Below are positions 1 through 25,400 of a stretch of 27,730 bases of DNA, piece by piece. Location: the NCBI GenBank assembly GCA_964492865.1, contig CAZBLX010000001.1:1-27730 (forward strand). Direction: 5' to 3'. Within the stretch, counting starts at the first letter, position 1, and every line of letters begins with the position of its first letter. The notes beneath the pieces are model-generated. The model was not told the origin of the DNA. It saw nothing but the letters and a program-made list of their open reading frames with translations, and made no database searches. Source of the DNA: an uncultured Planctomycetia bacterium (GTDB lineage: Bacteria; Omnitrophota; Gorgyraeia; Duberdicusellales; 4484-171). The translations under genes and the position numbers were made by a program.

Positions 1-34
1 CCTCTCTTGCTTTTGTGCGAGGTCGCATTTTAAA

Positions 35-1988: not shown

Positions 1989-1993
1989 AAAAA

Positions 1994-2317: not shown

Positions 2318-2335
2318 TTTATCTTAAGGTGCAAA

Positions 2336-2364
2336 ATTATATCATAAAATCAAGCGTATGGGAA
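2336..2364 (-). promoter_or_regulatory. Putative sigma70-type promoter for hisI-trpE-ribH
   Basis: On the minus strand: -35 TTCCCA (2364-2359), 17-bp spacer, extended -10 TGa-TATAAT (2344-2336). The -10 ends 19 nt upstream of the hisI ATG. Confidence 0.6.
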
Positions 2365-2501
2365 ACACTTTCCTATCAAAACAATACCTGCTAAAATCAG
2401 ATAAAAATTTGACAAAAAGCAACCTTTTAGAGAAAATATATTTAGGTAGTTTTATAGAGTGTAAAATTTTAATAAAGTTTTTTAAAAAGATGGAGGTAAA
2501 A

Positions 2502-4334: not shown

Positions 4335-4353
4335 AAATTTTATTCTTTTTTGC

Positions 4354-4392
4354 TATTCTCTTTTAAATTTTGTTCTTAGCAGTAAGAGAATA
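4354..4392. terminator. Possible weak hairpin between convergent genes
   Basis: Inverted repeat TATTCTCTT (4354-4362) / AAGAGAATA (4384-4392) with a 21-nt loop. AT-rich with a large loop, so not a classic intrinsic terminator. Confidence 0.25.
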
Positions 4393-4406
4393 CCTCTTAG
4401 CAGTAA
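4374..4406. repeat. 12-bp direct repeat TCTTAGCAGTAA x2, 21-bp period
   Basis: Exact copies at 4374-4385 and 4395-4406 in the intergenic region between the MCP and the giant gene. Confidence 0.75.
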
Positions 4407-4499
4407 TTATCTTAAGGAAGAAGGATCCATTGGTTAAATTTTCCCAATTTTTTGCAAACTGATAATTGTTTTAAAATTTAGTTTTTTCTATAGTTTGAA

Positions 4500-7400
4500 T
4501 TACCAAGGATTGTTTTGACGAACTGTTTCTTTCAACGATGTAATAACCTGTAATTTTTCTATTTCTCTTTTTTCTTCTGACTCAATGATTACTTCAAAAG
4601 TAGAACTTAAATCTCTGTTTGCTTCTCTTTCTCCTCCATCAAAAAGAGGTTTTATTCTTTCCTCAAAGTATTCTTTGTTATTATATTCATCAGCAAAAAA
4701 GTTAGCTATTTTTTCTTTGATAAGAAAAGTATAAATCTCTTTTGCAATCCAATTAAAATCTTCTTCTAATTTAGCATCAACTCTTGTGGAAAGAACTGCC
4801 TCTGTTCCTGAAAATCTTACCAGTGTCCATCCTTTATCTTTAAAGAATATCTTTATTCCATCTATATCTGAATAACCAAAACTTCTTTCTCTGGCAAATT
4901 CAATCAACATCTTTTTAACTTCCTTCTTTATAATCTTCAGATTACCTTTGTATTTAGATAATAAGAATTCATGATAAGGAGGTCTTATATCAGGGCTGAA
5001 ATGCCATGAAGGTAATTTATTGATAAGCTTTTCTGTATTCCAATTTACCTCTTTTAAAGCCAAAAGTAAAAGTAAGCTTGCCTGAATTGAATCATCAAAA
5101 AATCCATTTCTTCCAAACCAAGAAGGATACATATGAGCTGATGCTTCAGCACCAAATACAGCACCTGTCTCTCTCATCTTCTTTTTTATATTGGCATGCC
5201 CTGTTTTAAATGTTACAGGAATTCCTCCCAATTCTTCAATCTTTTTAATAATACAGTCACTCATCTTTACATCCACTACTATCTTTGCTTTGGGGAATTC
5301 TTTCAATATTCTTTCTACAAATGTGCCCAAAATATGTTCTCCCTGAAAATCAAATCTTCTCTTTTTAATTTGAGCTACAGCACCAATTCTATCTCCATCT
5401 CCATCAATCCCTATTGCTATATGAGCATCTACCTCTTTTAGTTTCTCGTAAGCCTGATCCATATTCTTCTTTACCGTGGGGTCAGGAAGGTGAGCAGGAA
5501 ATCTTCCGTCAGGTTTCATATTTATTCCTACAACTTCTGCTCCTAATCTTTCTAAAACTTCTTTTAGAGCCTGGCCTGCTGTTCCATTTGCTGGATCAAT
5601 TACTACCTTTAAACCTTTAAGAGGTAAACCTTGCTTTTTAATCTTTTCTTCAACAAATTCATCTGAACTATCAACTAACTCTTTATATGAATATTTCCTC
5701 TGCAAACTTAACCATTCACTTGCTCCTTTTGCCCAACAGGAAGCAATCACCATATTTACATACTTCTTTAATATTTTTTCTGAATTTTCTCTAATTAAAT
5801 TGGCTTTTCTTTTAAATCCTACAAATTCTTGAGTATCTAAGCTCTTTTTGGCATATTCGGAAATCTTTTTTATCTCCTCAGTTGTAGGATTTCTCTGGCC
5901 CAATTTATCCTTTATCACTACTTTAAATCCATTCTCTCGAGGAGGATTATGAGAGGCAGTAACCATTATTCCTAAATCGGAATCAAAATAAAGAGTAGCG
6001 AAGTAAAGGATAGGGGTGGTAACTAAACCTATATCAATCACATCTATACCTAAATTTAACAAATTCTCTATTATTCTTTTTGCAATCCTTTCTGAAGAAA
6101 ACCGTGCATCTTTTCCTACAACACAGAGTAATTTATCTTTCTTATAAAACTCTTTCTGGGACTTAATCAAACCTTTTACCCAGGCATCTATAACTTCAAG
6201 AGTAAGGTATTTTTCTGCATCAGGAGCTCGCCAATCATAACTACGCGTAATAAAATCTATTCTCTCCTTATTTGTATAATCTCTTCCTCCATCTACCTCT
6301 TGTTTTTCTTGAGGAAAAACTATTCTGACAAAAGAATCTAAATTATCAAATGCTGAATATTTTTCTTTCTCAATTTCCAAAAATTCAAAAGTTAAATCTC
6401 TCAAAATAGAAAACCATCTCTTTAAATCATCAGCACAAAAAATTTCTCCCTTCCATTCACAACAAATATATTTATGATACAAACCTTCCTCTTCAACAAC
6501 ACCTCCTATATAAGAAGATATTTCTTCTTCTAAAGTAGAGAGATTTAAAATTAAAGAAAGTGTTTCTATCCAAGCTTCTGGAAAGAAAAAAGAAAAATAC
6601 TCTTCAGCTTTTTTTAAAGTTTTTCCTGTCTGAGAAGTGGCATCAATTATTAAAATTCTTAAAGGATTATTTAAGGAATTTTTTAATAAAGCAATTTCTT
6701 TTTTTATCTTCTCCAGATTCTTTTTATCTTCATTTATAAGATGAATTTCAGGAGCAAGAATTTGAGCCTGAGGTATATTTAAAAACTTAGACAAAATCTC
6801 ATAAACTATAATTAAAGGCCAGGCTTCTGTTCCTATAAATACACAAAGTTGAGGGAAAAATTCATCTTCTTTTATCTTTCTCAGCGCTTGATACATATAA
6901 AAAGGAACTCTTTCTTTCTTAAGAGTGAATATTTCGCCTCCACCATATTCTCTTCCTATTTTTATCTCTATATAGAAATCTTCATCAGGAATTTTTATAA
7001 ATTCTTGCAGATTTCTTCCTCCATCTCTTCTTTCAAAATTATTTAAAAATCCTCTTAAAATCTCATCTATCTTTTCTCTCTTTACAATCCTCACTCTATT
7101 CTGCAAATCTGTAGGCAGAAGTCTTTTTTCTCCACAAAAAAAGCTATATTTTCCCACTTTTAACATAGAGATATCATTTTTACTATCCCCAAAAACTGCT
7201 ATTTCATCTTCAGGTATCTTGTAAAAATCTAAAAAGTCTTTTACTGCTTCCTTTTTAGAAACTAAAGAGATATCTATAGCTACACTGGAGTAGGTAATCT
7301 TGAATTTTCTAAGAGAGTCTATATTCCTCAATCTCTTTTTGACTAACTTCGCCAGTTCCTTCATTAAATATTTTTCCTCAAAAAATTTAACTGTTACCAT

Positions 7401-10400
7401 AGAAATCTTAGGATAAGCTTTTATTATTAAGTTTTCTCCTCTCTTTACCAAGATTTCAGCCTCTTTTATTAACAAATTCCAATCTTCTCTTTTTATCTCT
7501 TCTAAACTTTCTCCAATCTCTTTTATAATCTTTTTTTTCTCTTCATAAGAACTAAATTTGCTATGCTTTATATCTACTTTTAAATTACCTTCTTCATCAA
7601 AATATCCCCAGACACTGCCCATCTCACTCAAAAAGAAAACTTTTTTCTTCCTGCGAATATCTTGAGGTAATCTTTCTCCTACCAACTCCTCCAAAGATTT
7701 AAGAGACTGTCCACTCACTATTACAAAAAATATGTCTTTCCTTACCAATTCTGATATTAACTCTATTTTCTTCTTTCCTAAAGGTATGGATGCTTTTTCT
7801 AAAGTATCATCATAATCAGTAAATATTGCTTTTATTCTGCCCCCATCTTTTAAAATCCTTTTTCTTCCTCTTCTTTCTGACTCAATATCTTTAACTACTT
7901 TCTCTAAAACTTCTTCTTTTATATCTGGTTCAATCTCTCTAATTATTTCAGGAAAATCTACTATCTCTCCTATCTCTTCATATTCTCTCTTCAGTCTTCT
8001 TGCTTCATTTCTTAATCTTCTGAAATATCTCTTTGCTATCTCATCTGCAGAAAATTTCAACCAGCTAACACTTAAATACGGTGAACCAATAACTACACCT
8101 TTTTTCTCTAATTTCTTTCTTTTCTCTTCTAAATCTGCAAATGTAATCCCATTTTCTGCGATAATCTTAATAAGTTTCCTCAATCGGGAAGTAGTCATCT
8201 TTATTTTAAATAAAGAAAATACTCTTAAAATGTCTTCTCGTTTGAGTTTTAAATGTTCATTTTCTTTTAAAAATTTCTCCAGAGGGTCTTCTGCCTTTAT
8301 CTTTTCTTCTATTTTCTGAATCAATTCTTCTATTTCTGAAGAATCAGAATACTTCCTTAATCTTTTTAACTTTCTTAATGCTCTTTTAAGCTTACCTTCT
8401 TTTATCCAGTTTTCTGCTTTTTTAAATTCTCTTCTTACCATCTCTTCTCTGTTTGCTTCCTCCAGAAAAACTTTTTTAGAACTTCTAAACATCTTTTTTT
8501 CTTGTGCTCTCTTTTCCTCAATTACCTTTATTTCTCTGCCCATTATCTTACTAATAATTTCCTCCCACGAAACTCCTCTTTTTTTCTTTATATCTAAAAG
8601 GGTTCTATATTCCTCAAGATACTGTCTTCTAAATCTTACTATGTCAAATACAGAAGAATCTCCTATAAATTCTTCTACTGCTTTTTTATATTTTGGCTTT
8701 TTTACTTCTTCTTTTATCTCTATCTCTTCCTCTTTTTTACCTACTATATCAGCAATAATTTTTTCTAAAGAAATTCCTTTCTTTCTTTCTATTCGTCGTA
8801 TAGTTCTGCATTCTTCAGGATATGACCTTCTAAACTCAGTAATATTAAATACATTTGAATCACCCATAAATTCTTTTACCGCTTTCTTATACTTCACCTC
8901 TTTTATTTTTTTCTCATACTCACATAAAGAATTCAGGGTAGGAAGAAATCCTTTCTCTATCCAGCTTGCTTCTAATCTATATCTTCTCAGTATACGACTG
9001 GTAACTTCACCTTTTTCCTGAGCTTTCTTTAAATCAGATAAACTTTTATAACCTAATATATTGGCTATAAAAAGCCAGGCTTTATATTGATTATGGATAT
9101 CCTTCCAATAGTTAGAAGAAATCTTTTTTAAACAGAACCAAGCAGCTTCTCTGAATACAGGGTTTTTCTTCACATAATTATGCGACTTATAAATTTCAAA
9201 AATCATTCCTTTAAATCGAGCAATTATTCCTCCCAGATGCATCTTATAAAATTCATCACGTCCAGGATAAAAGATATTCTTCTCGATCATCATATCTACC
9301 AACTTCTTTAAAGGAGTTTTCTTTCCTATTAAATCTAAAAATTCCCCAGGCAATGTTTTTCTTAGAAGCCATTCTAAAGCTTTCTCTTCTTTTTCTCTAT
9401 CCCAGCTTATATCTTTTATCACTAACCAGAATACTCTCTCCAGCAAAGGATAGTCTTTGTCAATCTCTGCTTCCTTTAGAATTTTTAAATAATCCAGTTC
9501 ATTCCTTTCTTGATAATAGTTTTTCAATCCAAAAAGACCAAAATTTACAAAACTTCTATAGCCAAAACATCTTAAATCATTTTCAATCAAATATCTTTCT
9601 GCTTCCTCTAAACTTATCCTTTTCTCTTTTAAGTTTTGAGAAAGCTTTATAAAATCCTTTGCTACTTTGCCAAATAACCATCTTATTGCTTTTTTGCGCA
9701 TCTTTATATTATCCCACTTTGTCTCTTTTAATAACCAAGGGGCTGTTTTCAAAACAGGATCCCATCTCTCAAGTTCAGTAACTTTTATAATCCATTCATA
9801 GTTCTTATCTCTTAAAAAAGAAAACTTTCTTTGTAATTCCCTAAAGGTTGGGTATCTTATCCTATTTGACAAGACAAAATTTTCCAAATCTTCATAATTT
9901 ATTTTTCCTTGATGATATTTTTCTATTTTTTCTTTATATTCTTGAGGCAATCTCTTTAAAATATATTCTTTAAGCTTAATTATTCTTTCTTCCTCTTTTC
10001 CTCCATCTTTAATAAATCCTTTCCCATTTCTATTTTTCTCCGCAAAAATCTTTAACAATCCTAATTTTTCTGTGACAGACTTAACATGAAGAAGCTGGGT
10101 GAGTTTAGGAATTCTATAGAAGAAAGAATTGGTGAATTTAAAATCTCTATCCTTAAATGAATTATTGAGCTCCTCATCAGACAAACCGTTATTATTCTTT
10201 CTATCCTTATTTTTATCAATCTTATTAAGCGAAATAGATAATTTCGTTTCTTTCCTCCCTCTGAAAGAAGAAAGTATGGCACTATTTCCATCTATGAAAC
10301 CTGAAATTCCCCCATCTTTTTTTTCCAACTCACGGGACACCAGAAACCTTATCCATGCATTATTAATTCTATTTTTAATCTCCTCAGGCTTATTAACATC

Positions 10401-13400
10401 CAACAATTCCTTTGATAAACAGCGCCAAACCTTGGTGTATCGAGGGTTAATAAAAAGTTCAGCGAAAGAATCGCGGGATATTTCATATAATCTCTTTATA
10501 AAACTCTTATCTTCTTCCTCTAAAGAATTGCAATCTCTGACAAATTTAAAAAAATCATTTTTTGCTTTTTTCTGCCAAGGCTGAAATTCCATAAACCAAA
10601 TTACGCCTCTTTTAGCAGAAAGGTATATAGCATTACTCAAAGTATTTGGTCCACGAACTACTATGGGCAATTCGCATAGTGAAAACAACTCATCAAATCT
10701 CTCTTTTTCTAAAGTTGTAGGAATAGAGATTACACTTATCTTATGACCTGTCGTTTTTGGAGAGATTTTAATACCAAAAATCGTTTCCCAAGGAACTTCA
10801 TAAACATTATAGTTACCTTTCTCAACCAAATTTTTAAATGTCTCATACTCATCAAAACCCCCTTTTCCAACTCTAAACACAAAAATAGTTAAATCCTCGT
10901 CTTTAAACTCCCTACTGCTTTCTCTTGCCTTCTCCAATGCGGAAAAATAAATCTCATACATTGAAAAATAAGCAAAACTATAAATCACACCCCATTTACT
11001 TTTTGTCAATTTATCTAATTCTTTGTCCTCAAGAGAAGGTAATAATTTTTCTAATAATTCCTTTTTTCTTTCTTTAATCTTCTTAGCCCCTTTAGGTAAG
11101 CTGTCTACCTTTTTCATAAATTCCTCATCTACAGGAGCTACCCCTACACATTTCTGACCAAATCCCCAGCTTAGGATACTATTTGAACTTCTCTCTTCAA
11201 AATAAGAAGACCCCTCAATTCCAAACTCATAGAGTTCAATTACCGGAGCTTCTTTCTCCAGTTTCGAAATAAAAGGCGAAATAATTTGTTCGTTTAGATC
11301 AATAGAAGCTGGTCTATAAACAATAATAAGAGAAACAGCTGAAGGCTTTAAGATTTCTTCCTTCATATATTGCCACGTATCTTTTGCATTTAACCAGATA
11401 AATTCCACATCTTCTGTGCTGAAAGTTTTTTTGTCAATGAAAGTTGCTTTCTTTATTTCTTTTATCAAATTTGATTTTAGAGCTTCTGAGATCGACGACA
11501 TTCTTAAGGCAGATATAAAATCATCACGGTTATGAAGTATCACTTTAATTTCTTTTTCAGAATAAATCTTTCTTAACATTTTTATAGTATTCAATATAAA
11601 TGGTATATCTCCACTTCCTCCTAACCATGATACAGGAGGAACGATAAAAACAATCTTTTTAAAATCCCTTTCTGATAAACTTTTTTCAATTTCTTCTCGG
11701 ATAAACATTGTCTTAAAAGATTTGAGTGCTTCCTTATTATCGTGCTTTTTCTTTTCTCCAAACGATTTTAAAACTCCTTTATAAAGATTAAAAATATAGT
11801 GACTACTACTAACTTTCTCTGCTGCCTCTTCTAAAACTTCCAAAGCTTTCCTGTCAAGAGGAGATACAGAGCTTTTAACTATAGAACTCAGCATCATAGC
11901 TATTACATCACGATATTTTCCTAAAGGATATTCTTCTAAAAAATCTCTTAAGGTAAAAATAACACTTTTACTAATGCAATTTGGATAAAACTCAATGAAG
12001 TGTAATAGACGACTTTCTGCTATGTGATAGGTAAATATATTTAAATTTTTTGTTTTAAGTAAACTAATAAGAAAAAGAATCTTTAACGGGAGAGGTTTTT
12101 TTTCTAAAATCTCTTCTATGGAATGTAATTGCCTCCGATATAACTCTGTATCTATATCTTCTATCTTCAATTTCTTTAGCTTCCCTATCTCTCTCAATAA
12201 TATTTCTCTTTCTTCCTCTCCGAAATATTTACGATAAATTTCTACAAATTCATCCAAATCATTAGGAATAATATTAAAAGTATCCTTAGAGAAATTGAGG
12301 CAATTTTCTTCTACTCCTTTCCCTCCATCATAATTATTCCCTCTAAATCTTTCTCGTATTTGTTCAAAAGAAAGTTCAGGATTTTCCTCAAGCATATAAG
12401 CAACACTTATAGCAACCCGAGGTGCAAGAAATGAATTTCCAACTCTTTTTTCTCCTTTAAATTCAACCTCTCCATAACGATTATCAAAATACAGTATATG
12501 AGCATCTTTTTCCTCATAGATTATTTTTTCTTTATTAATTTCTCTACTTACAGCAAGAACCTCTTTAAATGCAGCAGGATAACTTATCCTTCCATAAGCA
12601 TATTCATTGTTAGCAGCTGCAATTATTATTACGCCTTTTCGATAAAGTTCCTTAATAATCCTATGAACACTTTCCCATTTTTGTGGATCAGGATTGCTGT
12701 GTCCAGCAGTAATTACAACTATTACTCTTTTTCCAGATTTTTCAACATAATCTTTTATGATTAATAATGCTTCATTAAGAGAATCAACATATTCTTTTTC
12801 TGAGGCACATATTGTCCTAACGCGAATACTTCCTAACTCAAATAAACTCTTCTTAAGAATTTCCTCTACAATCTCAGCATGTTCCTCATTATCTCCTCTT
12901 ACATTGATAATCGCTACACTACCCTCTTTATGTCGAAGCCATTTAATTTGATTAATATTGCTTAATGATGCGGGTTGATGAATTTTTATGCTTGGTTTTC
13001 TTACATTTTTAAAGAATAATCTACAAAACAAAAATTTGGTGAATACAATAAAGATAATCTTTCTTAAAAACAAAAAAACTTGTTTTAAACTGTGGACAAA
13101 AGATGGGAAGAAGGAACTGAAAGAGATTATCTTAGCTAAAAGATTCTTCAAGAATGTTGTTAACTTTAAAGGCGGGGCTCTCAAAAAGAAATTTTTAAGG
13201 TAAATTAATAATAATCTTTTGAAAGAATAACTGGTTAAGAATTTGCTCCTTTCCTTTCTTGAAAATCTTAACCAATCGGTTATTATAAATGCAAATATAT
13301 TTTCCTTGACAGAGTTATATAAATATGTTATAGTTTGTTTGCCATGCCTGCCAATGTTAAACAAATAATTCAGGATTTGATTATCCCTGAGTTTAGAACT

Positions 13401-16400
13401 CTTTCTGCTGAAATTAAAAGATTGGATGAGAAGGTTGAGAACGTAAGAAGTGAATTTGAAGAAAAGTTTAAGAGATTGGATGAGAAGATTGAAAGTATAA
13501 GAAATGAGTTTGAAGCTAACTTTAGAAGGATTGATTCTGAAATTGATCTCCTTAAAGAAGAAATTAAGTTTTTGCGTGAAGAAATAAAGATTTCTATAAA
13601 CATTCATGAAAGACTTGCCGCACTTGAGGCAAAAATAAACAAATGAATTTTTGAATGAAATATTAGACTCCTTATCGAACAAACCACCATCATTCTTTCT
13701 ATCTTGGCTATTTTTAATCTCATCAGCAGTAAATAAGTCTTGAGATATATTTTCTTTTCTTGTTATTCTCTTAGCCTTTTGAATTCTGCCTCTTATCTTA
13801 CTACCAAAATTATCGATGTGTAGAGAAAGTAGATAACTAATTAAAAGAACCACTATTCCTGACTCTAAACCTAATGGTGCCATTATCCAAAGAGGTAAAT
13901 CGCCAGTATATCCTGTCAAATTCAACAAAGCGTATACTCCTGCTTTAAAATCTCCATAGTTTATTAACTTAAAGGCAGTACAGAAAGCAAGGGAGGCAAC
14001 ATAAATTACTTGCAACATTCCTATTCCGACTATCCAATAGTTATCAGTCCTTTTGCCTCTTCTAACTAACCAGAAACCTAATGTAGCATTATAAATGTTT
14101 GGCACAAAATTATTCAAAATCAAACCTAACTGTTTTGGTAAAGCAAAAGGTAAAATTGGCTGTTCAAGACGAACATATCTAACGGAAAAATCAGGAATAC
14201 TCTCTCTTTCAACAAAAGGAAGATATCTTGTTATAACTCCTCCTGGGTCCAGCCAAGATGGACAACGCACTTTATCTAACACATAATCAGGAAAGGTGAG
14301 GGTATTAAAAAGAGCATGAAGAAGTTCATGAGGTAAACTTATCAATATACACAAAGGTGAAAGCCCTGCTATCAGCATACCTAAAATTGTTTTAACTCCG
14401 CGCCGATCTGGAGGAAAAATCTCAATCATTCTTTGGTCTAAGTAGTTTAAGCAGTTCTTGGCAGAGTTAAAAAGACCTTTAATTACTGAGTAAAGAGAAT
14501 TGAATTCAAAATTTCTCTTTCTTCCTCCATCATTTCCTAAATTATTTAATAAGAAAAGTCGTTTTCTTTCTAATTCACTTAATTTCAATTCTTTTTCTCT
14601 AATCTCTTGTTCTGATTTTTCCAAAATTTTATTTCCTTTCCCTTTAATTACCTCAATAATAACACAAAACATTTTGTGAACTTTTCTCCTTATTTTCTTG
14701 ACAGATAAATATGTTATAGTTTGTTTGCCATGCCTGCCAATGTTAAACAAATAATTCAGGATTTGATTATCCCTGAGTTTAGAACTCTTTCTGCTGAAAT
14801 TAAAAGGAGTGTTCTGGAGTATTTTTAAAAGTTCTGATTTAAATAATTTCCTTCCTCCATCAACTTTATCTGCTGCTATCTTAAAAGACCCCAAATAAAT
14901 ACATTCAACAACATCACTAAACCTTCTGCCCCTTCCAAATGTCCTTTCACTTAATTCTTGTTCTGCCTTCTCATATGGTATACTCTTCTCCTTAGAAAGA
15001 TTACTTATTGCCCTTTGCCAGTAGATTCTGGAATATCTGTATAGTTCGGGTTTTACATAGATCTTTTCAATATATTTTAAAGGTATCTCTATGGGATTCC
15101 ATTCCCTATCATGAATTACCAGATTAGTTTTTCCATCTCCACTATTGTCCGTAATATCAAGATTCCTGAAGTCATTAAGCAGCTCTTTAGTATTTATGAT
15201 AGCAAGCGCTCCCCCCTCCTCAGCAAATTTTAATGGATTTTCCAGATTTCTTCCGATATAAACCCCTTCACCATATGCCTGAACAACTGAAACCTCTGTC
15301 TTATATTTCTCTCTTACCATGGAACCAGATTTTAAAGCCTTGTCTTCTAGGATACCCAATAAATTAATAATTATCGGTAAGTTTTCTCCTGCTGAAATTC
15401 TAATAGTTTTGGCTTTTGTCAAAGAAATACCATGCAGAGCAATATCATCCGGAACCTCGCCATTCTCCAGAAAGTTTTTCAATACTTCTCTGCCATAGTT
15501 CCTACTCTGCAGGAAGTTATAGATTTTATTTATTGTAAAGATCTCCTCAACGTCAGGGTATTTTTTGCATACTGGAGGTAAATCATCTAAATTCTTCTCA
15601 ATTATTGCTCTTAATTTTATCCGCAGATCGGACAGATTCATATATGGCGCTATCGTCCTGACGAGTTTTATCGTATCCTCTATATTCCAGTTTCCTCTTT
15701 CGGCAACATCCGTGACAAGTTTATTCAGATTTGTGCTTAATTTCTTAAGGATACTATCTCTTAGGAATTCGGGTAACTCCAAACCTATACCAAAACTTTG
15801 CCTTAATGCCTTTGAATAGATAAGTGAATCTTCCTCATCTAATTTCAACTCACCCAATGCCTTAGCTCTTACGAAACGAATAGCATCCGCCAGAACTATC
15901 TCTGCAACAGAATACTCAACAGCTGAGAAAGGATGAGGTCTTTCAGGATCAAATATTGAATCTATACCGGAATATATCTTAACTATACCATTCTTTGCAT
16001 AAACTATTGAATTATCTGGATCATAGACCTCAAATCTTTTATTGATTGAATTATAAAATATCTGGATTGCATTTATTCCCAGATCACTCCTGCTTATTGC
16101 GGATGTCTCACCTCTTATATCACCAATCTTCATAGAATTTGAAATTTTTCTAATAACCTTTTCTATTTCCTCAATATTCCTCTCGATAATATCCAAAGGC
16201 AGATATTTACCAAGATATTCATTTATCTTTTCCCTTCTTCTTCTATATAACTCCTCCAGTGCCTCTGGTTCAAATCTCTTTATCTTGTCTTCAAGATCAT
16301 CAAGAATTGATGGAATTGTTATTCTTTCTTCTTTTATCTCCAGTAATGTATTTTTAAACTCCTCGTCTTTAAATCTATCAGCGAATTCTTTTAAAGGAAT

Positions 16401-19400
16401 ATCAATTTTCCTTAAAACGTTATCAAAGTCATGATCCTCATATCTATCAAGTTTGCCAAGAAATACTAAAAGCATGTTTCTTGCAGTTCCAGATGTAATC
16501 CCTATCTCCCATCCATCCTCACTCATCTCTTTAATTCTTTCCAAAACTTCGCTCACCTCTTTAGGAACTCTATCCGAATTCAACCACTCCTCAAATTCTG
16601 CCTTAATTGCATCATTTTCCTCTTCCACTCTTTTTCTCTCTTTTAAAACATCATCTATACTTTTCTCCTGCTTAGCTATCTCAACCAAAGTCTTGCCCCA
16701 AATTCCCTTTTCCAAAGCCTTTTCTATTGTTTTTTTATCTCCTATCCTGAGAGCTTCTCTTATTTTGTCAACCCTGTATGGGGTCAGTTGTCCATGTATA
16801 TAACCCAGATTCGTTGCCTCCTCACCGTATTCAAGATAATCCATTAGATAGACCGGAAACTCTACTCTGTTCAGGCTCCATATGGATTCGTTATTTACCG
16901 GTTTTATTTCTTCTCTTATTAATTTATCCAAAACCTCTAATTCTCTCTCTCTTTTGGAATCCTTCAGATACCTCACTACGGGAACTATCCAGGAGAATTT
17001 ATCTATATTCTTCCCTATTATCTCAAATGTCTTATCATCTGCGGTGAATCTATCCCAGATGTCTCCATATTTTATAATGCTTGTTACTATCCTATCTATC
17101 TCTATTCCCTCAGAAATTAACCTCTTTATCGCTCTTGCGAATAAATACTCCCCAGTTTTTTTATCTCTCTCAAGAACATAGTTTGCAATATCCTCATTTG
17201 ATTCTATGATGGCTAACACCCTTATGAGTTGCACTATAGCATCATTTCTTCTTTTTCTTGTCTCCTCATCCATTAGATTCAAATCGGCATTAAATTTCTC
17301 TATCTCCGGAATAACTATGTCTTTATACAACTTTCTCGTTGGGACGCCCTTCAGTATATTCTTGAATGATAACAAACCCATATATTTTAGAAATTTGTCA
17401 TCCAATTCCCACAGCAGGATATACTTTAGATCTTCTAATGATAAAGTGCTCGTATCAATATTTTCGTATTTATCAAGTTTTGATATATCAAAGAATGCTG
17501 GTTCTCTCATGTAGTTTTCAAAAAACTCACTTGCATTAAGTAGACCGAATATCTTGATAAAATTGATGAAATTTGGATTTACTCCAACAGTCTGTGTCAT
17601 TAATACAAAACCAGTAAATGTTCTGGAAATTGCAGAAGTTATTTCCTCCTTATCACTCACTTCTTCTATATATTTCATACCATTAATGAAGGTTCCGGGA
17701 GCTTTTACGAGCATTTTTCTCGCCTCGCGGAAACGAAGCCAATCTCGCAATACCCTTAATCCTGCTAAACCAATATATCTGGCAATCTTTCCAAGACAGA
17801 GAATATACAGAATATCGAAGAAATTTATCCCTTCTACAGAATATCTTGAAGAGATATAAAATGCGAAATCTATCTCTTCCTTGCCGGCTTCTCTCAGTAT
17901 AGAATCTAAGATTTTAATAAAGTCTTCTTCCTGCAGATCTTTTTGTATATTCTGAACAATTTCTCTTATGTACTTCATATACTTCGGATCACCATCCAAA
18001 GAAGCACATATCGCCTCCATCCTCAACTTTTTATTGAATTCCACTAAATCAGAACGTTTTCTAAATAACTGTATTACTCTTACAAACTCGGGGTACCTTC
18101 CAAATAGCTGTATTGTTCCTACAAATCCATATGGATATCTTAAGGATTTCTCTATATCTTCATCATCAAATTCCCTTAAGTATTTGATACCATCAAGGAA
18201 ACTTTTTAAATCCTCTTTAATCTCCTCTATTGGACATCTGAATATTATATGTAGTTTATACACTCTTGTTAATTTTATTCCATTAATAATGTCTACAAAG
18301 TTGGGAAGTTTCTTAATAGAATTTAGTAGCTCTGATAACCACCATAAACTATAATCACTGTTGCTGAATGCTGTTCTCACATCTTCTGGATTATTCTTAA
18401 CAATATTTATGAATTCTGGAGTGATATCCTTGATGGCAGATATAATTCTATAAAACTCTGATCCCTGATTCTTGAGAATATTCCAGATAATATCCTCACC
18501 CAACATCAGCAAAGCATCAAAGGCATCAAGTAATTCCATAAGTTTTTCTGTGCATTTTAATCCTGACATAAACTCATTAATTGCCTGCCTGAATTCTACA
18601 TTCTTAGATTCAAGTGCCTCTCTTACTTTCTCAATACCAAATCTATTGGCGAATATCAACATAATTAAATGTTCACTTATTCCCTCATCTCTTTCTTTAA
18701 ATCTCTCTCTGACATTTTCCTCAATCCTATTCCTATCTTTTCTTTCTATAACATCTCCGAATTTAAAGAATAACTCTACTGCTTTTTCTTGATAATTCTT
18801 TTTGTTGCTATTCACCCCAAGAATTATCAATCTGTAAATCAGCTCTTTAACTCTGTCAGTAAAACCCATGGGAGAGTAAAATTCCAGTCTACTGTCTGTC
18901 CAGTGATCTACGAAACCATCTATCCTCAAGATTGGGATTAGCAATTCAAGATGTCGCTTTACAAAATTTACCGACTCTTTATCTATAAAAATGCCGGGGG
19001 TTTCTCTAACTAAGTCACTTAAAAAGTTTCTCACTGTTTCATCTTCAATTCCATCCTCTATTCTTTCCACCAGTGCATCAGTAAGTATGGAATCGACCAC
19101 TGTGTTAAATGTTATTTCCTTTCCACTTTCTATCAATTCTCTAATTTTCTTTCTTATCTCATCATCACTTACCTCAAGTCTCTTCTTTAAGACCCACTTT
19201 TGCTTTAGTCTCTCCCTTATCCTAATGATGAGTCTTCTAATCTCCATCAACCTCTCTCTAATCTCCTCAATCCGCTCCTTCCTAACCCCCTCCCTCTCAA
19301 GTTTTCTCAGAACTCTATCTACATCTCTTGCCCTTTTCAAGTAGATTTCTGTAAGTATAGCTCTTGCTAATCTACCTCTCTCATCTTTTAAAGGTGAAGT

Positions 19401-22400
19401 CATAAGCAATTCAGCAATATTCTCATCACTTATACCCTCAACTCTCAATTCTTTTATCTTTTCTAATTGATACTCTTTTATCTCTGAAATGACATCTCTC
19501 TTTTTATTCTTGGTTTCTTCATGTATCTGAGATAGGCCCTTTAATGAGAAAGTTAACTTGCTTTGCTCTCCACCATCATTCTTTCTATCCTGGCTACTTT
19601 CCTCAATCTCATCAAGTAAAGTAAGCTCTTTATTTTTCCATCTTATCCCTATCCAAGAGGTATACTCTCCATCAATAACTTTGTAATTTTTCTCTAATAA
19701 CTTTTCTTTCACAAAATCTTCCCATTTTCCCTCTTTGCTTAAGTAATCTATATAAATCCTAAATAAAATACTTAACAATTCTCCTCCCTCTTCATTTCTT
19801 AAAAAAGTAGGCAAATCCTTAAGATGAAAGAAAATCGCCCATTTAGGAAAATCTTTTCTTAACCATAACTCCTCCATTATAAGTCTTTTCTTTTTTACTC
19901 TATATTGAGAAAATATTAATGTGTTTAAACCCGCTCCTTCAAAAATTAATCCTCCTTCTTTCACTATTCCACTTATAGAAGAAAGTATCTTGTAAGCTTG
20001 TTTGTGAGAATAATGCATTAATACATTAAAAATTCTTGCCCAATCAACTTTTTCTTTTTCCCAATTCTTATCTAAATCTCTCAAATCTGCTTTTATAAAT
20101 TCTAAATTATTCAATCCTTTTTCTTTTTTAACAACTTCATAGGGTTTAAAAATAATCTTCTTTTCTTCAAAAGAGTCACTTTCTGTTTCTTTTTCATCAA
20201 AAAATATAAGTTCTGCTAATTCTTCTCTATTCTCTATTACTTCCAAAAGAGAAAAGCTATCTTTTAGAACAGAGATCTTTAAAAAACCTATCAAATTTTT
20301 ATTTTCATCCTTTAAAACGATATAATCTCCTTTCTTTACTACTAAATAAGCTACTAAATAAGGAATAACTTTATCCACCCCATATACTTTAAGTTGAGGA
20401 AATTTTTCCGCAAATTCAACAGTAGTAAAAGGGGTGGGTAATCCTGTTTTTCTATCCCAAGCCATACCTATTCCCAAATCAGCAAAAGCTCCTTTTTGAG
20501 GAGAAAATCTTTTCCTAAACCAGTCATCAAAATCTTTAAGTCTTTTCGGATAGGTAGTTAGAGGAATACCTCCATCTGAATTTATCCTTCTCCATTTATG
20601 AAAATAAATAAAAGGACGGCGAGAAATCTCTTTCTCTATACGCCTGCGATAATGAGAAAAGCCTTTCTCCTTTATAATTTGCTTAATATCCTGCCAAGAG
20701 ACATCTCCATACAAATACCAAAGATTAAGATAAACTTGTTTTCTCTCTTCATCTCCCAAGAATTTCAACCATTCCAAAACTTTTCTACTTTTTACTTTTT
20801 CTCTTATCATCTTAACCACACCTATCTTCTCTAAATCGTATAGAATTTTTACTTCTCTTCTATCTAATAGCTCTTCACAAATAATATCTTTTTCTCCAAA
20901 TAATCTTCTCAAAATCTTCTCTATCCTCGTATTTATCTTTCTTCCTCTCTCTTTCTGTCTTAACCTTTCCTTCTCAGTTTTTTTCTTGTAGAATCCTTTA
21001 TCTCTCTCTATACAAGCTTTTGTTTTCCTTTCTATCTTCTTCTCTCTTCTGCTTTTCTGCCGACTCTTTCCTTTTTTTCTGGTAAAAAACCTTTTTCCTT
21101 TTTGTAAAGACAAAATCTCTCCTTGAGGAAGATGAGCAGAGATAAATTCTACCTCACCTTCTTGATTAAAAATCTCTACTTCTATCTCTCTATTAGCTAA
21201 CGCAGCTCTTTTAACTTTTTTACCAGCAAATCTTATAGTTCCCGTCTTTCCTACCCAGAATCTTTTAAGCAAAAGTTTTCCTTGAGAAAGTTTCTTTAAA
21301 GTTTCCTTAGATAATTTTTGATAAAACACGCCTATTAAATTATCTTCCTTCCAAATCTGAGCAAAGATTATCCTTTTCTGAGAAAGAAGAACTTCTATAG
21401 GCTTACCTTCATAAAGAAGAACATTTGCATTTTTATATCTAAACTCTCTTCCTAATTCTGCCCATATTCTACCTGCAAAGATAAGCTCTCCTCTTTTGCC
21501 TAAGAAAAGATTCTTAATAATAATCCATTTACTTTGAGTTAATATTTCTTTCCTGACACAAGGCAGTTTTAAAGCATCAATTAATAAAATATCTTCCTTC
21601 TTTACTCCTTTATTTAAACTTTCAAATTCCAAAGTTATTTTTTCTATTCTTTTTTTTCTTTTAAAACTTTCCCACAGCTTTTTTAATTGAGGATTTTTCA
21701 AAATAGCATTTCTTACTCTTGTTCTTGAAACTTTTAAATCCTTAGCAATTAAGGTGATTTTACCTTTTTTCTCTATAATCTTTTCCTCCAATCTCTTCTC
21801 AAAAATTCTCTTTTCTTTCTGAAATTGACCTTCTAAAATTTTTCTAAGTAACTTTTTCCCTTCTTCAGTAAGAGTAAAAAGGTATTTTTCTTTTCTTTCC
21901 ACTATTCCTTTTTTGATTAACCGCCACAGAGAAAGATATATATTTTCTCTCTTTCCTCCTAACACCTCTTTTACTTCTTTTCTTATTTCTCCCCAGGAGG
22001 TAATACCTTCAGAGATCAAATAAATAATAAATAGAGTTGACTTAGAATAATGAGTAAGCCTCTCTCTTTCTAACTCCTCTACCTTCTTGAAAAATTCTTT
22101 TCTCCTTTCTTCTCTATCTCTTCCTCCATCTAAATATTTCTCTCCATCATCTTTTTTCCTCTTTTTCTTTAAATATTCCTCAAACCGGGAAGAAGAAAAG
22201 AAATCTTCATAAAATTGTTCAGGAGAAATCTTCTCATCTTCATTCTCCAAATGCTTAATTTTCTCATCATCCTGCTTTTCTACTTTAAAATCCTCTGTTT
22301 CCCTTATCCATTCTTTTATTTTCTCATTCCATAAATATCTACCAGAAGAGACAGGAATTAAAATCTTTTGTCTTACCATCCACTCAAAACTAGGAATAAG

Positions 22401-25400
22401 TCCTTTTACTTTTATCTTTCTTAATTTAGCAAATTCTTTCTCTGCCAAGTTCCTGTTCAAAAATCCTTGAGGAAATTTCTTCCCTAAAAGTTTTAATGCT
22501 TCACGATATGGAGAAAATGTATGCCATAAATCCTCTTCTTTCTCTACTTTGGAAAGCAATTCTTCTTTTATTTTGGGGGGAATTTTACGTTGTCTTATTA
22601 AACGTTTCGCCTTATTATAATTATGCTCCTGGCACAATTTTCTTACTATTTTTTTGACCTCTTCTATTCTTAAATTCTGCAAAATCTCATCAAATAATTG
22701 AGGAAACTTTTTACGATACAAAGCTATAAATTTCTCCACCTCTTCTATCCTGCCCTGAGAAAGCAAAGCATAACATTTCTTTCTTATCTCATCCCTGCTT
22801 TCTTCTTGTCTCTTTCTAACCAGAGAAGTTTTTTCCCTAATAATAGATTTTCTCCTTGCCGAAAGATTATCTTTTTTCTTTATAACTTTTCTTGAAAGCA
22901 ATACTTTTCTTTTTTCTTCCCTTCTCTCTTTTACTTCTACTCCTTTTATCCCTCTTCGATATTTCTCAATTAATTCTTGTAACTCTTGGTTTCTTTTTAT
23001 CATCCCTCTAAGTTTACTTCTTCCTAAACCTAACAAATTAGCCGCTGCAGAAATATTGCCTCCTGTCTCCTCCAAAGCTTTTTTAACCCTTAAGTATAAC
23101 TCCTCTAAAGGAGGATATTTTCCTTTCTTTATCGCTAAAATTATCTCTTCCGCCTGCTTTGTCAGTATATATCCTTCCTTTTTATCTTTCTTTCTCAAAA
23201 ATCCTTTCTCCTCTAATTTTTTCAAATATTGAAAAATCAAATTCTCTCCTTTTCCTAAAAGCTGGGCTATACTGTCTTCGGCAACTCCCATATAATAAAG
23301 AATAAGTATCTTTAAAGCTAAAGAAGATAATTTTCTAAAACCAGCCTCTTCCAACTTCCTACAACCTTCCCATAAAGAATTTAATTCTTTAACAAATTCC
23401 TCCCAATATTTAAACCGTTTTCTTCTTAACCTAATCTCTTTATCATCTATCTTCATCCAATAAGTTACCCCTAAATCCCATGCTTTCTTTAAAGTAAGGG
23501 TACCATCATAAAGAGAGTTGATGAACTCCTCTCCTCTTTTTGTCAAGATTAACTTATTATTCCTTAATTCTATCAATCCCAATTTCTTCATTCTATGAGT
23601 ATGAGTTGTGGAACCAGGAGAGATTAAATCTCTTAAAGGAATACCTCTACTTTTTGCCCATAAAAACTTTACATCATTTTCGGTAACAAGAAGCTTTTCT
23701 TCCCACTTTTTAAATTTAGAAATTAGCCTTTTTGCATCTTCCTGAAAAGTTCTTCCTCTTCCTGTCAAAACAGAAATTAAATCCTCTACACTGGCTTGAT
23801 TTCTTAATACTTTTTCTAAAACTATCTCTAATTCTTCATTCAAATAATAATCGCCAAATTTTTCCTTCTGGAAAATTAGCCCTCTATTTAAAAGTTTTAA
23901 AAAGCGCTTCTCCACTATTTTCTTTCCTGATTTCTGGGTATATATACCAGTTATATCTGTAACTAAGGATGGTTTTCTTTTTCCTTTTTCTATACAGATA
24001 AGAATAGCTAAATCTTTCTCATCAAACTCCCTAGGTAACTTTGAAGAAAGTCCTTTCAATATTTTAATTTCCTTCTCCCTCAATCCTAATCCTAATCTTA
24101 GATTCTTCCAGCTGAATCCAATAAAACGAGGAGGAAGTCTCAAGCTTACCAATAATTCATTCACTTCCCATTTACTTTTAAGATAATTTTCTAAAATTCT
24201 TCTGACTGACTCCTTTAAAATGAATCTATCCTCCTTCTGAATAAGAAAATCAGTGTTTTTATCTATTTTTTCTAAAGCATCTTTTATTTCCCAACCAGCC
24301 AACTTTCCTTTCAGTAAATCTTTAAGCTCATCAAAACTTAAATTACCTTTTTCTGCTAAAGTAAGTAATACTAAGAAATCATTTTTGGTTAACAACATTC
24401 CTTTATAAAAAGGAAATCTTTCTATCTTTGCTATCTGCTCCTTTTTCCCTCCATCCTGAGTAATTATCTCTTTTGTTAAATCCTGCATAATTGCCTTTGC
24501 TACTTTCTGATTTATCCAAGGCTGACCTGTGGTAAAAATGGCTATCAAATCAGAAGTATTTAAAATTCGAAGAGTATATGGTTTAAGCTCCTCATAATTT
24601 CTCCATACATCTTTAAAAGAAAGCTTTCCTCCTCTATCTTTCTGGGTAAAAACATCTAAATCTAAGGAGGCTGCTTTGGGCAAATATTGACAAACCTTTA
24701 TTTCCTCTTTTAAACTAACTACTTTTTCAAAAGAAGCAGTTTCAAATCTTACTATCTCTTCAAATTCCTTCTGAAGCATCTTCAGTTTTTCAAATTTAAC
24801 AGGAGAAGTTATCCAGAAAATAGAAGAAGAAAAATAAAAAGAAGTCGCAGAAAGAAATTCTCCTACTCCATAACTAAGCAAATGTCTGATTTTTTCTTCT
24901 TTATTTTTTAACCAGAAATTAGATAAATACTTTACTGAAGGAAAAACCCAATCAGAATGCTGGTCTATATGGAAAAGAATGAAATCTTTTATCTCTTCCT
25001 CTAAAAGAAATACATTCAAAAGATTATGAACATCTGCCAAAAATACCTTTTTATCTCCCAACTCTATCAAAATATATCTGTCTTTACCTAATCTATAGTA
25101 ATTCTTTCCTACTTTTATCCTAAAAACTTTTTCTCCTAACTCTAAATTCTTTAAATCCTTATCTAAAAGAGGAAGTTTTCTTTGTTGAATAATCACCCTT
25201 CCTCCGTCTTTCTCTTTTATCTTTTGCTCAAGCAGTTTAAGTGCTTCTTGATAAACTTTTTTATTTATGTTCTCCTCTTTAAAACTTCTCCACAACTTAT
25301 ATCTTACCTCCTCCTCACCTAATATAAGAAAGGCTTTAGTTAAAAATTTAACTGGTTTGCTATAATCAGGAGAGGTATGCTGCATCTTTAATCTTTTCAC

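Follow-up and report, generated by a model that had tools for sequence, protein, structure and literature searches.

A small conserved protein gene with its own promoter lies antisense and codon-aligned inside a giant multi-enzyme open reading frame of an uncultivated Omnitrophota bacterium

Can a complete gene with its own promoter reside backwards, codon for codon, within a much longer bacterial reading frame, and if so, which of the two frames is preserved by selection? This question is raised by the window analysed here, a 27,730-nt stretch of DNA (contig CAZBLX010000001.1, positions 1 to 27,730 of the forward strand, assembly GCA_964492865.1) from an uncultured Planctomycetia bacterium (GTDB lineage Bacteria; Omnitrophota; Gorgyraeia; Duberdicusellales; 4484-171). 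A sequence-only reading had reported a near-perfect promoter and a start codon without Shine-Dalgarno sequence for a 100-aa coiled coil at 13306-13646, in codon register with the giant frame on the opposite strand. The plus-strand features are as follows.

13306..13311 (+): −35 box, TTGACA.
13326..13334 (+): extended −10 box, TGtTATAGT, located 17 nt after the −35 box.
13344..13646 (+): small coding sequence of 100 codons, starting with ATG 9 nt after the −10 box and ending with a stop at 13644-13646.
13414..13521 (+): two 54-nt (18-aa) internal tandem repeats of the small gene, of the form KRLDEK...EF.
13296..13648 (+): extent of the conserved cassette (promoter plus coding sequence).

Every element described by that reading is present, and the observation is thus confirmed. 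The promoter matches 11 of 12 consensus positions plus the TG extension, which makes it the best promoter-like site in 12300-15000 and the only site with at least 11/12 matches plus TG in the whole window on either strand (about 0.05 such sites are expected). No purine-rich Shine-Dalgarno sequence precedes the ATG. The plus-strand codons occupy the same triplets as the minus-strand frame. The Leu codons of the small gene are TTG, CTT, and CTC (4, 4, and 1, respectively) and the Ser codons are TCT and AGT (3 and 2), with no TTA, CTA, or TCA, although in this genome TTA and CTA make up 50-52% of Leu codons and TCA 17-21% of Ser codons. The probability of this absence is about 4-9e-4 for this gene alone. 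GC skew is +0.39 to +0.59 at 13300-13600, in contrast to −0.2 to −0.5 across the rest of the giant. The 393 nt at 12951-13343, upstream of the small gene, contain 0 stops in the giant's frame and 4-17 in each of the other five frames, and none of 20,000 shuffles was open. In addition, contig L136, which is 98% identical and comes from another sample, shows the same arrangement with the frame open.

The host frame and its features on the minus strand can be described as follows.

4500..27730 (−): giant stop-free frame; the listed ORF is 4500..27488 (7,662 aa), and the frame stays open to the window end, giving at least 7,742 codons; it is a multi-enzyme, polyprotein-like ORF with 17 DGG junctions.
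13683..14522 (−): DGG-delimited 280-aa hydrophobic segment with an HELLH (HExxH) motif and no Pfam hit, also carried by L136; it is flanked by the two copies of the cassette's 5′ part (see below).
13683..13691 (−): DGG junction (SQDRKNDGG) immediately upstream, in the giant's direction, of the nested gene; the linker is repeated at the DNA level at 19570-19600 (94% identity) and 10153-10225 (73%).
12951..13682 (−): spacer of 244 codons between this DGG and the S8-like domain, consisting of the antisense of the small gene and its promoter plus a strain-variable 322 nt, with no domain hits.
12321..12950 (−): subtilase-like (S8) segment that follows the spacer and ends in a DGG (Pfam Peptidase_S8, E=8e-7; NCBIfam QhpE-like subtilase, E=1.9e-10, below the curated cut-off).

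The giant frame contains 17 DGG motifs against 1 expected, and DGG sits at the native N-termini of the HAD and PGM/PMM segments. The ORF thus looks like a polyprotein, although cleavage at DGG has not been shown directly. Two further features were identified, of which the second copy of the cassette was missed by the sequence-only reading.

14698..14828 (+): second, truncated copy of the cassette, with TTGACA at 14698-14703, a spacer of only 11 nt, TATAGT at 14715-14720, and ATG at 14730; the first 26 codons are identical to the full gene, after which the sequence diverges to a stop at 14826-14828.
12953..13274 (strand not assigned): 322-nt stretch present here and in L136 but replaced by 13 nt in the 96%-identical strain L001; the difference of 309 nt is 3 × 103, so the giant frame is preserved.

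The second copy (promoter plus first 26 codons at 14698-14806) is 100% identical to 13319-13420 over 102 nt, the spacing is 1386 nt (3 × 462), and the copy is also in register with the giant (hmmsearch E-value 9e-11).

A search for free-standing homologues of the small protein had been proposed beforehand as a check. The protein turns out to belong to a real, uncharacterised family with a conserved N-terminus KQIIQDLIIPEF and C-terminus IHERLAALEAKI, comprising 23 close hits and 2,295 clusters at E≤1e-3. Homologues occur in many phyla, and most copies examined lie outside any giant ORF; one free-standing copy lies between rplU and rpmA in Kryptonia. AlphaFold2 predicts a single long helix (coiled coil) over residues 3-99 with pLDDT 93.7. 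Repeat number in the internal tandem array varies among homologues, always in whole codons.

The closest relatives (54-99% identity) come from at least six other metagenome assemblies. In each of them the codon-aligned antisense frame is open across the gene, and in six of seven over the whole contig. Listed by contig, the frame is open over the entire length of L002 (1206 codons), L133 (408), L134 (617), L135 (273), L136 (337), L141 (314), and L008 (2405), while in L140 it is open over 239 codons. The comparison of TTA/CTA/TCA usage between nested and free-standing members, also named in advance as a test, gives a clear difference: the number of antisense stops per gene is zero in all nested copies, whereas free-standing homologues carry such codons normally (on average 5.7 in loci with GC below 0.40 and 4.1 at GC 0.40-0.50). 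Across six nested copies, 0 of 62 Leu codons and 0 of 29 Ser codons are of the stop-generating type. The −35 box is invariant in L002, L133, L134, and the second copy in the window, while L136 reads TTGAGA; overall, the promoter is conserved in every nested copy. Similarity to the copies in other contexts starts about 10 nt upstream of the −35 box and ends at the stop codon according to blastn limits and the alignment. Neither terminal repeats nor target duplications were found, and there is no plus-strand terminator. In a neighbour-joining tree, which has no support values and is based on short proteins, the nested copies form one clade, and they sit at different places in giant ORFs.

Estimates of dN/dS in both frames, likewise suggested earlier as a test, point to the small gene. 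Among nested copies its dN/dS is 0.07-0.21, with dS of 0.4-2.5 among the diverged copies. The giant's frame across the nested gene has dN/dS near 1 (0.6-1.7 across the diverged copies), in contrast to 0.16 in the giant's real domains (7860-12950, compared with strain L001).

The interpretation offered by the sequence-only reading, namely a complete, promoter-driven, natural gene nested antisense and in register with both strands constrained to stay open, is supported by these comparative data. Of the three roles it proposed, none of which was tested, a tolerated insert in a linker fits best, since the giant's frame is neutral there and the gene lies next to a DGG junction; the element, however, is a protein-coding cassette rather than a palindromic repeat of the Rickettsia type. 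A regulator acting by convergent transcription is possible but not shown, and for a chaperone or adaptor there is no evidence for or against. The suggested leaderless mRNA, which was not assayed here, is consistent with the conserved 9-nt gap in this clade, although more distant nested copies do have a Shine-Dalgarno sequence.

The best explanation, held with reasonable confidence, is an autonomous small-gene cassette, i.e. a sigma-70-type promoter plus a 100-codon coding sequence for a coiled-coil protein, that resides in the codon-aligned antisense (−0) frame inside a spacer of an Omnitrophota multi-enzyme giant ORF. The data show that the protein is a member of a widespread family under strong purifying selection, that its promoter is conserved, that the giant's frame across the cassette carries no amino-acid constraint yet is stop-free across every nested copy examined, that this state is achieved by using no TTA, CTA, or TCA codons and only whole-codon indels, and that nested copies form one clade at different places in giant ORFs. 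The remainder is inference: the giant would be translated straight through the cassette, this requirement being what removes antisense stops, and the resulting F/L/S/N/K-rich filler peptide would be harmless because the polyprotein is cut at the neighbouring DGG junctions. Expression data are lacking for both strands, and nothing shows directly that ribosomes read the giant through this spacer. In the same view, the small gene is transcribed from its own promoter, as an essentially leaderless mRNA in this clade, and makes a protein with its own function, which was not identified; the −0 frame is used because it is the only antisense frame in which all stops can be removed by synonymous changes (PMC6884476); and the lineage of stop-free cassettes has been copied or recombined among spacers of giant genes. 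Whole-cassette gain or loss in strain L001 occurs exactly at a DGG. However, in this strain the giant's frame is closed just upstream of the cassette's 5′ part and the small gene is fused to an unrelated nuclease fragment, so either the arrangement is dispensable there or the contig is chimeric. A strong promoter firing head-on into a 23-kb gene should also be costly, which a pure passenger model does not explain, and no mobility machinery or terminal repeats account for how the cassette moves.

Among the alternatives, a regulatory module, in which convergent transcription or antisense RNA throttles or partitions expression of the giant gene downstream of position about 13300 and the protein is secondary, appears unlikely but is the strongest. 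The promoter is very strong, conserved, and faces the giant's transcription, the transcript should run antisense into the HExxH segment in the absence of a terminator, and the cassette lies at cassette boundaries next to DGG junctions in the window, L002, and L134. On the other hand, the protein sequence itself is under strong purifying selection (dN/dS about 0.1), free-standing homologues in unrelated contexts have the same kind of TTGACA promoter, and the truncated second copy, probably dead as a promoter due to its 11-nt spacer, is nevertheless kept in frame. Somewhat more doubtful is a selfish or mobile, moron-like unit that spreads among spacers of giant genes, persists only because stop-free copies do not break the host ORF, and encodes a protein that benefits the element or is neutral to the host. 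Discrete, shared boundaries in at least four flanking contexts, two copies in the window with a perfect 102-nt match, rearrangement breakpoints inside the cassette in the second copy and in L001, the single clade of nested copies, and the inconsistent neighbours of free-standing copies agree with this reading. It is weakened by the absence of a transposase or recombinase, of inverted or direct terminal repeats, and of a target-site duplication, by a dN/dS of about 0.1 over saturated dS, which implies a long-maintained protein function, and by the free-standing relative that occupies a conserved ribosomal-protein operon position.

The two remaining alternatives are very improbable. Separate minus-strand genes on either side of a divergent small gene, with an accidental or compositional open frame between them, might be suggested by gene callers splitting the minus-strand frame at the small gene on related contigs, by the lack of any predicted protein matching the antisense peptide in a collection of 5.8 billion sequences, and by a spacer that has no domain hit and evolves neutrally. 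The giant's frame, however, has zero stops over 732 nt at 30% GC (against 11-38 in the other five frames), the same openness is seen in eight diverged copies despite saturated synonymous divergence, and all spacer indels are multiples of 3. As for an assembly artefact, a mis-join at the perfect 102-nt repeat could make the local order (second copy, HExxH segment, small gene) unreal, and L001 shows that contigs can change partner inside this sequence. While the junction at 14705-14806 is not independently confirmed, L136, obtained from another sample with another assembler, reproduces 13098-14101 at 98% identity, covering the promoter, the small gene, the DGG linker, and the HExxH segment, and the nested state itself does not depend on the second copy.

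In comparison with described systems, the closest analogue is the ambigrammatic narnaviruses, which have a codon-aligned reverse ORF opposite the RdRp gene (PMC6884476, PMC8316113, PMC8155312). There too one frame encodes a conserved protein, while the other is kept free of stops by avoiding UUA/CUA/UCA, shows no amino-acid-level constraint, and stays open across diverged relatives. The present case, however, is in a bacterial DNA chromosome, the roles are reversed in size (the conserved protein is the small nested gene, and the frame merely kept open is a short stretch of a giant ORF that is a normal coding sequence elsewhere), and the reason for openness is probably to let the giant's translation pass. 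The long overlapping genes of Pseudomonas aeruginosa (PMC8850804) are likewise complete ORFs on the opposite strand inside a longer bacterial gene. In those cases the embedded ORF is evolutionarily young and the host gene is conserved, whereas here the embedded gene is the older, widely distributed family, the host frame is unconstrained, and the embedded gene has a near-consensus promoter of its own. In-frame Rickettsia palindromic elements, the analogy drawn by the sequence-only reading, are also repeated elements that sit inside host ORFs without breaking the frame and are translated as filler; the present element, however, is not palindromic, encodes its own conserved protein on the other strand, and carries a promoter. 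Phage morons are autonomous promoter-ORF-terminator cassettes, similarly compact and self-promoted, inserted in a long, differently organised transcription unit and found in varied contexts, but here there is no terminator and no prophage context (the neighbours are ribH, trpE, hisI, and an MCP gene), and the cassette lies inside rather than between reading frames.

The host ORF resembles the "multi-enzyme metabolic cluster" class of Omnitrophota giant genes (bioRxiv 10.64898/2026.06.07.730766; also 10.1101/2023.11.21.568195), carrying many unrelated enzyme domains in one frame (PGM/PMM, HAD, methyltransferase, peptidase, and HTH) as well as hydrophobic segments, and the neighbouring TrpE is most similar to Omnitrophota proteins (up to 79% identity). 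The window shows only at least 7.7 kAA, below the 10-kAA cut-off of those studies, and the ORF runs off the window; neither paper mentions antisense or nested genes or a DGG junction motif. In this giant gene the small protein is what selection preserves, and the giant frame across it is filler kept stop-free, a layout so far described mainly in certain RNA viruses.

The minus strand of the window carries a giant ORF listed as 4500..27488 (7,662 aa), whose frame in fact stays open to the right end of the window and spans at least 7,742 codons. The features of the plus strand at 13306-13646, opposite this frame, are the following:
13306-13311, plus strand: TTGACA (-35 box), followed by a 17-nt spacer to the extended -10 box
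13326-13334, plus strand: TGtTATAGT (extended -10 box), followed by 9 nt without a Shine-Dalgarno sequence
13344, plus strand: ATG that opens a small ORF of 100 codons
13644-13646, plus strand: TGA stop of the small ORF

The codons of the small ORF occupy exactly the same triplets as those of the giant ORF (the -0 frame). Its promoter is the only site in the whole window, on either strand, that matches at least 11 of 12 consensus positions and also has the TG extension, while about 0.05 such sites are expected by chance. GC skew is +0.39 to +0.59 over 13300-13600, in contrast to -0.2 to -0.5 along the rest of the giant. Among the 9 Leu codons (TTG 4, CTT 4, CTC 1) and 5 Ser codons (TCT 3, AGT 2) none is TTA, CTA, or TCA, although in this genome TTA and CTA together make up 50-52% of Leu codons and TCA 17-21% of Ser codons; the probability of this absence for the one gene is about 4-9e-4. 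The 393 nt upstream of the ATG (12951-13343), which are non-coding for the small gene, have no stop in the giant's frame and 4-17 stops in each of the other five frames, and none of 20,000 shuffles was open. Thus, the observation made in the sequence-only reading, which had described this promoter, the ATG without a Shine-Dalgarno sequence, the codon register, the missing codons, and the inverted skew, is correct in every particular. Its interpretation of a natural gene nested antisense and in register, with both strands constrained to stay open, is supported by the comparative data presented below.

A search for homologues, one of the checks proposed together with that interpretation, shows that the small ORF is a real gene. 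In a collection of 5.8 billion predicted proteins it has 23 relatives at E<=1e-3 (E-values from 1.7e-50 to 2.5e-4), ranging from 99% down to 32% identity over 94-100% of its length. One of these, P0020, however, matches only the first 30 residues and is a fusion described below. The alignment of the family (KQIIQDLIIPEF ... IHERLAALEAKI) reveals a conserved N-terminus (KQIIQDLIIPEF, then EIKRLDEK), a conserved C-terminus (AIDIHERLAALEAKI), and a variable number of RLDEKI-type repeats. A profile search of 1.84 billion cluster representatives finds 2,295 clusters at E<=1e-3 and 254 at E<=1e-10, nearly all of them proteins of 60-250 aa. Homologues occur in MAGs labelled as many phyla, including Planctomycetota/Brocadiaceae, Nitrospirae, Kryptonia, Binatia, and Omnitrophota, and most of these copies lie outside any giant ORF. 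In Candidatus Kryptonia (loci L003 / L015, 6001-6393), for instance, a free-standing homologue with 39% identity sits between rplU (L21) and rpmA (L27), immediately after rplU.

AlphaFold2 predicts one continuous helix over residues 3-99 with mean pLDDT 93.7. An exact look-up of the window's small protein returned no record, and the protein does not belong to a curated family: Pfam and NCBIfam searches gave only generic coiled-coil hits, such as DUF1664 and the sll1863 family, all below the curated cut-offs, and a profile search of the PDB returned only generic coiled coils. Gene neighbourhood is not informative either, since the neighbours of free-standing homologues (a beta-helix protein, a DNA alkylation repair enzyme, a methyltransferase, and ribosomal proteins) have nothing in common, which leaves the protein without an assigned biochemical role.

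To examine whether the nesting is conserved, the DNA of the closest relatives was retrieved. These loci have 32-50% GC and come from at least six different assemblies.

Table. Nested relatives of the window's small gene: locus, identity to the window's small gene, length of the open antisense frame, and number of stops.
L136; 98% nt; 337 codons (whole contig); 0
L133; 78% aa; 408 codons (whole contig); 0
L002; 69% aa; 1,206 codons (whole contig); 0
L134; 63% aa; 617 codons (whole contig); 0
L135; 63% aa; 273 codons (whole contig); 0
L141; 56% aa; 314 codons (whole contig); 0
L140; 54% aa; 239 codons; 0

A more distant copy, L008 (CAYMKG010000052.1, positions 1-7217, a MAG labelled Planctomycetales; 41% identity, 43% GC), lies inside a 7.2-kb contig that is one open frame of 2,405 codons with recognisable HExxH, nucleotidyltransferase-like, and JAB/MPN-like motifs. 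This contig has no DGG motifs of the kind that join the segments of the window's giant ORF (see below), so nesting is not limited to DGG-type giants. In all eight nested homologues the codons of the two strands are aligned. Most of the nested contigs are short, and a search of the flanking minus-strand frames in the short ones gave no domain hits.

As for the use of TTA, CTA, and TCA in free-standing homologues, a comparison also named beforehand as a test, these behave differently, having on average 5.7 antisense stops per gene in loci with GC below 0.40 and 4.1 at GC 0.40-0.50. The only zero counts below GC 0.50 belong to the nested copies, a second copy in locus L019, and the free-standing homologue L005. 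In six nested copies, 0 of 62 Leu and 0 of 29 Ser codons are TTA, CTA, or TCA. Codon bias from high expression does not explain the missing TTA, because the copy in the Kryptonia ribosomal operon uses TTA normally and the non-coding promoter region is also stop-free in the giant's frame.

The dN/dS estimates for both frames, which had likewise been suggested as a check, indicate that selection differs between the strands. Among the diverged nested copies substitutions pile up at the third codon positions of the small gene: dN/dS in the plus frame is 0.07-0.21 (dS of 0.4-2.5), whereas in the giant's frame it is 0.6-1.7. As a control, the giant's frame over its real domains (7860-12950, window against L001, a strain 96% identical over 5 kb) has dN/dS of 0.16. 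The nested copies are not statistically independent, although their synonymous divergence is saturated. The protein that selection sees at the amino-acid level is therefore the small one, and the giant's frame across it is filler that is only kept free of stops. Indels support this reading, as all of them are whole codons, including those outside the small CDS: a 6-nt indel in the promoter spacer of a second copy in the window, 322 nt against 13 nt between the window and L001 (a difference of 309 = 3 x 103), and a repeat spacing of 1386 = 3 x 462. The 322-nt stretch (12953-13274), which is also present in L136, is purine-rich on the plus strand and contains a non-aligned 71-aa plus-strand ORF (12988-13203) of unclear status; L001 has a 15-nt direct duplication (AATTTGATCGGTTAT) at this site.

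The promoter is conserved too. TTGACA-17-TATAGT/TATATT, with the ATG 9 nt after the -10 box, is kept in L002, L133, and L134, while L136 reads TTGAGA at the -35 box. L008, L140, and L141 keep a TTGACA-17-TATACT/TATATT promoter (TATACT in L008) and L135 a TTGACA box; these four copies also carry a leader with an AAGGAG-type Shine-Dalgarno sequence. Transcription and translation of the two strands were not measured (neither RNA-seq, Ribo-seq, nor proteomics data were available), and thus only the promoter consensus and its conservation can be cited for expression of the overlapping pair.

The genes neighbouring the giant ORF are ribH, trpE, hisI, and an MCP gene. The best named relatives of TrpE are all Candidatus Omnitrophica/Omnitrophota, with up to 79% identity, which agrees with an Omnitrophota genome. 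Orthologous giant genes were sought among the GTDB representative genomes with the PGM/PMM segment and with two degenerate DNA patterns for the conserved N-terminus of the small protein, but no close relative was found and only L008 turned up again. The giant ORF carries HTH_8, methyltransferase, Peptidase_S8, HAD (Hydrolase_3), and all four PGM/PMM domains (PGM_PMM I-IV) in a single frame with none dominating, which matches the "multi-enzyme metabolic cluster" class of Omnitrophota giant proteins described in a 2026 preprint (Nielsen & Lui 2026, class 1). Whether it reaches the 10,000 aa of that class is left undecided by the at least 7,742 codons seen, as the frame is still open at the right end of the window. 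The N-terminal region there (27449-27730) consists of 111-nt (37-aa) tandem repeats (SDIFYLAKSYPKSYR...), and the TTG start at 27488 is therefore probably not the true start.

The segments of the giant ORF are joined by a DGG motif, which occurs 17 times against 1.0 expected (the maximum in 2,000 shuffles was 5). Examples of these junctions are:
7839-7847, minus strand: DGG junction
12321-12329, minus strand: DGG junction
13683-13691, minus strand: DGG junction (SQDRKNDGG) next to the nested gene
14523-14531, minus strand: DGG junction
14853-14861, minus strand: DGG junction

The Gly codons vary, so the motif is at protein level. The possibility that DGG is a disguised ribosome-binding site (GGAGG followed by a start codon) was rejected because of this variation, because GGA is simply the commonest Gly codon (56%), and because no start codon follows. 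The motif falls at the native N-termini of the HAD and PGM/PMM enzymes, which start within a few residues of a DGG (5 residues in the case of HAD), and the 274-aa and 551-aa segments have the sizes of stand-alone HAD and PGM/PMM enzymes, respectively. In addition, L001 (753-1896, compared with window about 7821-7847) has an extra 381-aa TPR-like segment inserted exactly between KRILKDGG and IKAIFTDYDDT, i.e., cassette-level gain or loss inside the giant ORF. Linker sequences around the junctions (SQDRKNDGG and following residues) are conserved at DNA level between distant parts of the giant, with 94% identity between 13684-13714 and 19570-19600 and 73% between 13651-13723 and 10153-10225, which hints at duplication or recombination at the junctions. 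The ORF thus looks like a polyprotein built of cassettes of independent proteins. Cleavage at DGG, however, is an inference that was not assayed, and the S8-like and HExxH segments are candidate proteases only. Two papers on Omnitrophota giant genes suggest proteolysis by S8 or C39 domains but mention neither DGG nor nested or antisense genes, and a literature search for Omnitrophota together with "antisense" found nothing relevant. The nested gene itself sits in a 244-codon spacer (12951-13682) with no domain hit, which begins right after the junction SQDRKNDGG and ends where an S8-like domain begins. In L002 and L134, DGG-type linkers likewise flank the cassette.

Besides the full copy, the window contains only one other, truncated copy of the cassette. 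The sequence at 14705-14806 is 100% identical to 13319-13420 (a 102-nt direct repeat covering the -10 box and the first 26 codons, 1386 nt apart) and, together with the TTGACA at 14698-14703, forms a cassette with a spacer of only 11 nt that keeps 26 codons before diverging to a stop at 14826-14828. It is again in register with the giant, and the two copies bracket a DGG-delimited 280-aa hydrophobic, membrane-like segment with an HELLH motif. This suggests recent gene conversion or recombination between cassette copies, although the junction of the second copy is not independently confirmed.

Similarity between cassettes in different contexts starts about 10 nt upstream of the -35 box and ends at the stop codon, while the flanks and the adjacent domains differ. 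In a neighbour-joining tree, computed without support values, the nested copies form one clade, with one free-standing member, L005 (5998-6246), inside it. L005 also lacks TTA, CTA, and TCA, but its antisense frame is open for only about 140 codons, and it may be a copy released from, or on the way into, a nested state. In L001 (7081-7803) the first 30 codons of a small-gene copy are fused to the C-terminal part of a PD-(D/E)XK nuclease (P0020) in GC-richer DNA, and the giant's frame is closed upstream of it; this is either a real rearrangement or a chimeric assembly at the conserved sequence, and the present data do not tell the two apart. In contrast to the proposed analogy with in-frame Rickettsia palindromic elements, the cassette is not an RPE-like or MITE-like repeat, since no consistent terminal inverted or direct repeats, internal palindromes, or target duplications were found in three copies, there is no Rfam match, and the element encodes a conserved protein. 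Nor is it a moron-like unit of promoter, ORF, and terminator in a prophage: the promoter and ORF are present, but there is no plus-strand terminator and the context is chromosomal rather than phage.

What the analysis demonstrates is a conserved, self-promoted small gene, a codon-aligned antisense frame that is stop-free in every nested copy examined, and amino-acid constraint on the small gene only. The mechanism built on these results is inferred. In this view, ribosomes translating the giant must pass through the small gene, so any TTA, CTA, or TCA in it is removed by selection; the filler peptide is tolerated because it lies between processing junctions; and the small gene is expressed from its own promoter for a function of its own. 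The codon-aligned frame would be used because it is the only antisense frame in which all stops can be removed by synonymous changes, a point shown analytically for narnaviruses (PMC6884476). This explanation is held with reasonable, though not full, confidence.

Among the alternatives, it is possible but rather unlikely that the head-on promoter is the point and regulates the giant by convergent transcription, as this does not explain the strong purifying selection on the protein. Somewhat less likely still is an essentially selfish and mobile cassette, which is favoured by its discrete ends and multiple contexts, while the lack of any mobility signature and the long-maintained protein argue against it. 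Accidental openness of the frame and an assembly artefact both appear very unlikely given the independently assembled nested copies, the dN/dS contrast, and the stop-free upstream region.

The closest analogue in logic is the ambigrammatic narnaviruses (PMC6884476, PMC8316113, PMC8155312), which share aligned codons, avoidance of the same three codons, and a reverse frame that is open but not constrained. The present case differs in that it is in a cellular DNA genome, a bacterial chromosome with housekeeping neighbours, where the overlap is 303 nt of a frame longer than 23 kb rather than nearly the whole genome of an RNA replicon; that the conserved protein is the small nested partner; and that there is an evident reason for openness, which is passage of a giant ORF. 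Bacterial antisense overlapping genes are known (for example, PMC8850804), but there the embedded ORF is the young partner.

As for annotation, gene callers cannot represent this arrangement and on related contigs split the giant's minus-strand frame at the small gene, so that such nested genes and their hosts are probably mis-annotated systematically. A search of the giant-frame peptide across the nested gene against the 5.8 billion predicted proteins gave no hit; it therefore provided no census of nested copies and shows only that the collection holds no protein read through this stretch.

A more speculative and rather doubtful reading, which the data nevertheless allow, is that Omnitrophota giant ORFs may be stop-free concatenations of whole gene neighbourhoods, that is, polyproteins cut at DGG junctions, which could absorb even opposite-strand genes. 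A dedicated lineage of stop-free, self-promoted small genes would then have become built-in punctuation of these giants: their head-on promoters would partition transcription of the 20-400-kb genes, and their shared sequence would serve as portable homology for shuffling enzyme cassettes between and within giant genes. The coiled-coil protein might itself act on the giant's products.

The locus represents a clean case of a double-coding layout in which selection on each strand can be separated, one strand being selected for its protein and the other, in the reading preferred here, only for the absence of stops. This layout has so far been described in narnaviruses (PMC6884476), and finding it in a cellular chromosome shows that the same coding trick arises wherever a long frame must pass through another gene. 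The DGG junctions and the cassette-level gain or loss seen between strains give concrete starting points for studying how these giant genes are built and processed. It is an open question whether the giant genes of Omnitrophota are really translated as one unit, which the present arrangement makes testable with one locus. Purging of antisense stops from a foreign gene and from its promoter region is hard to explain unless ribosomes must traverse the spacer, and is thus indirect evidence that an Omnitrophota giant ORF is read through as one frame.
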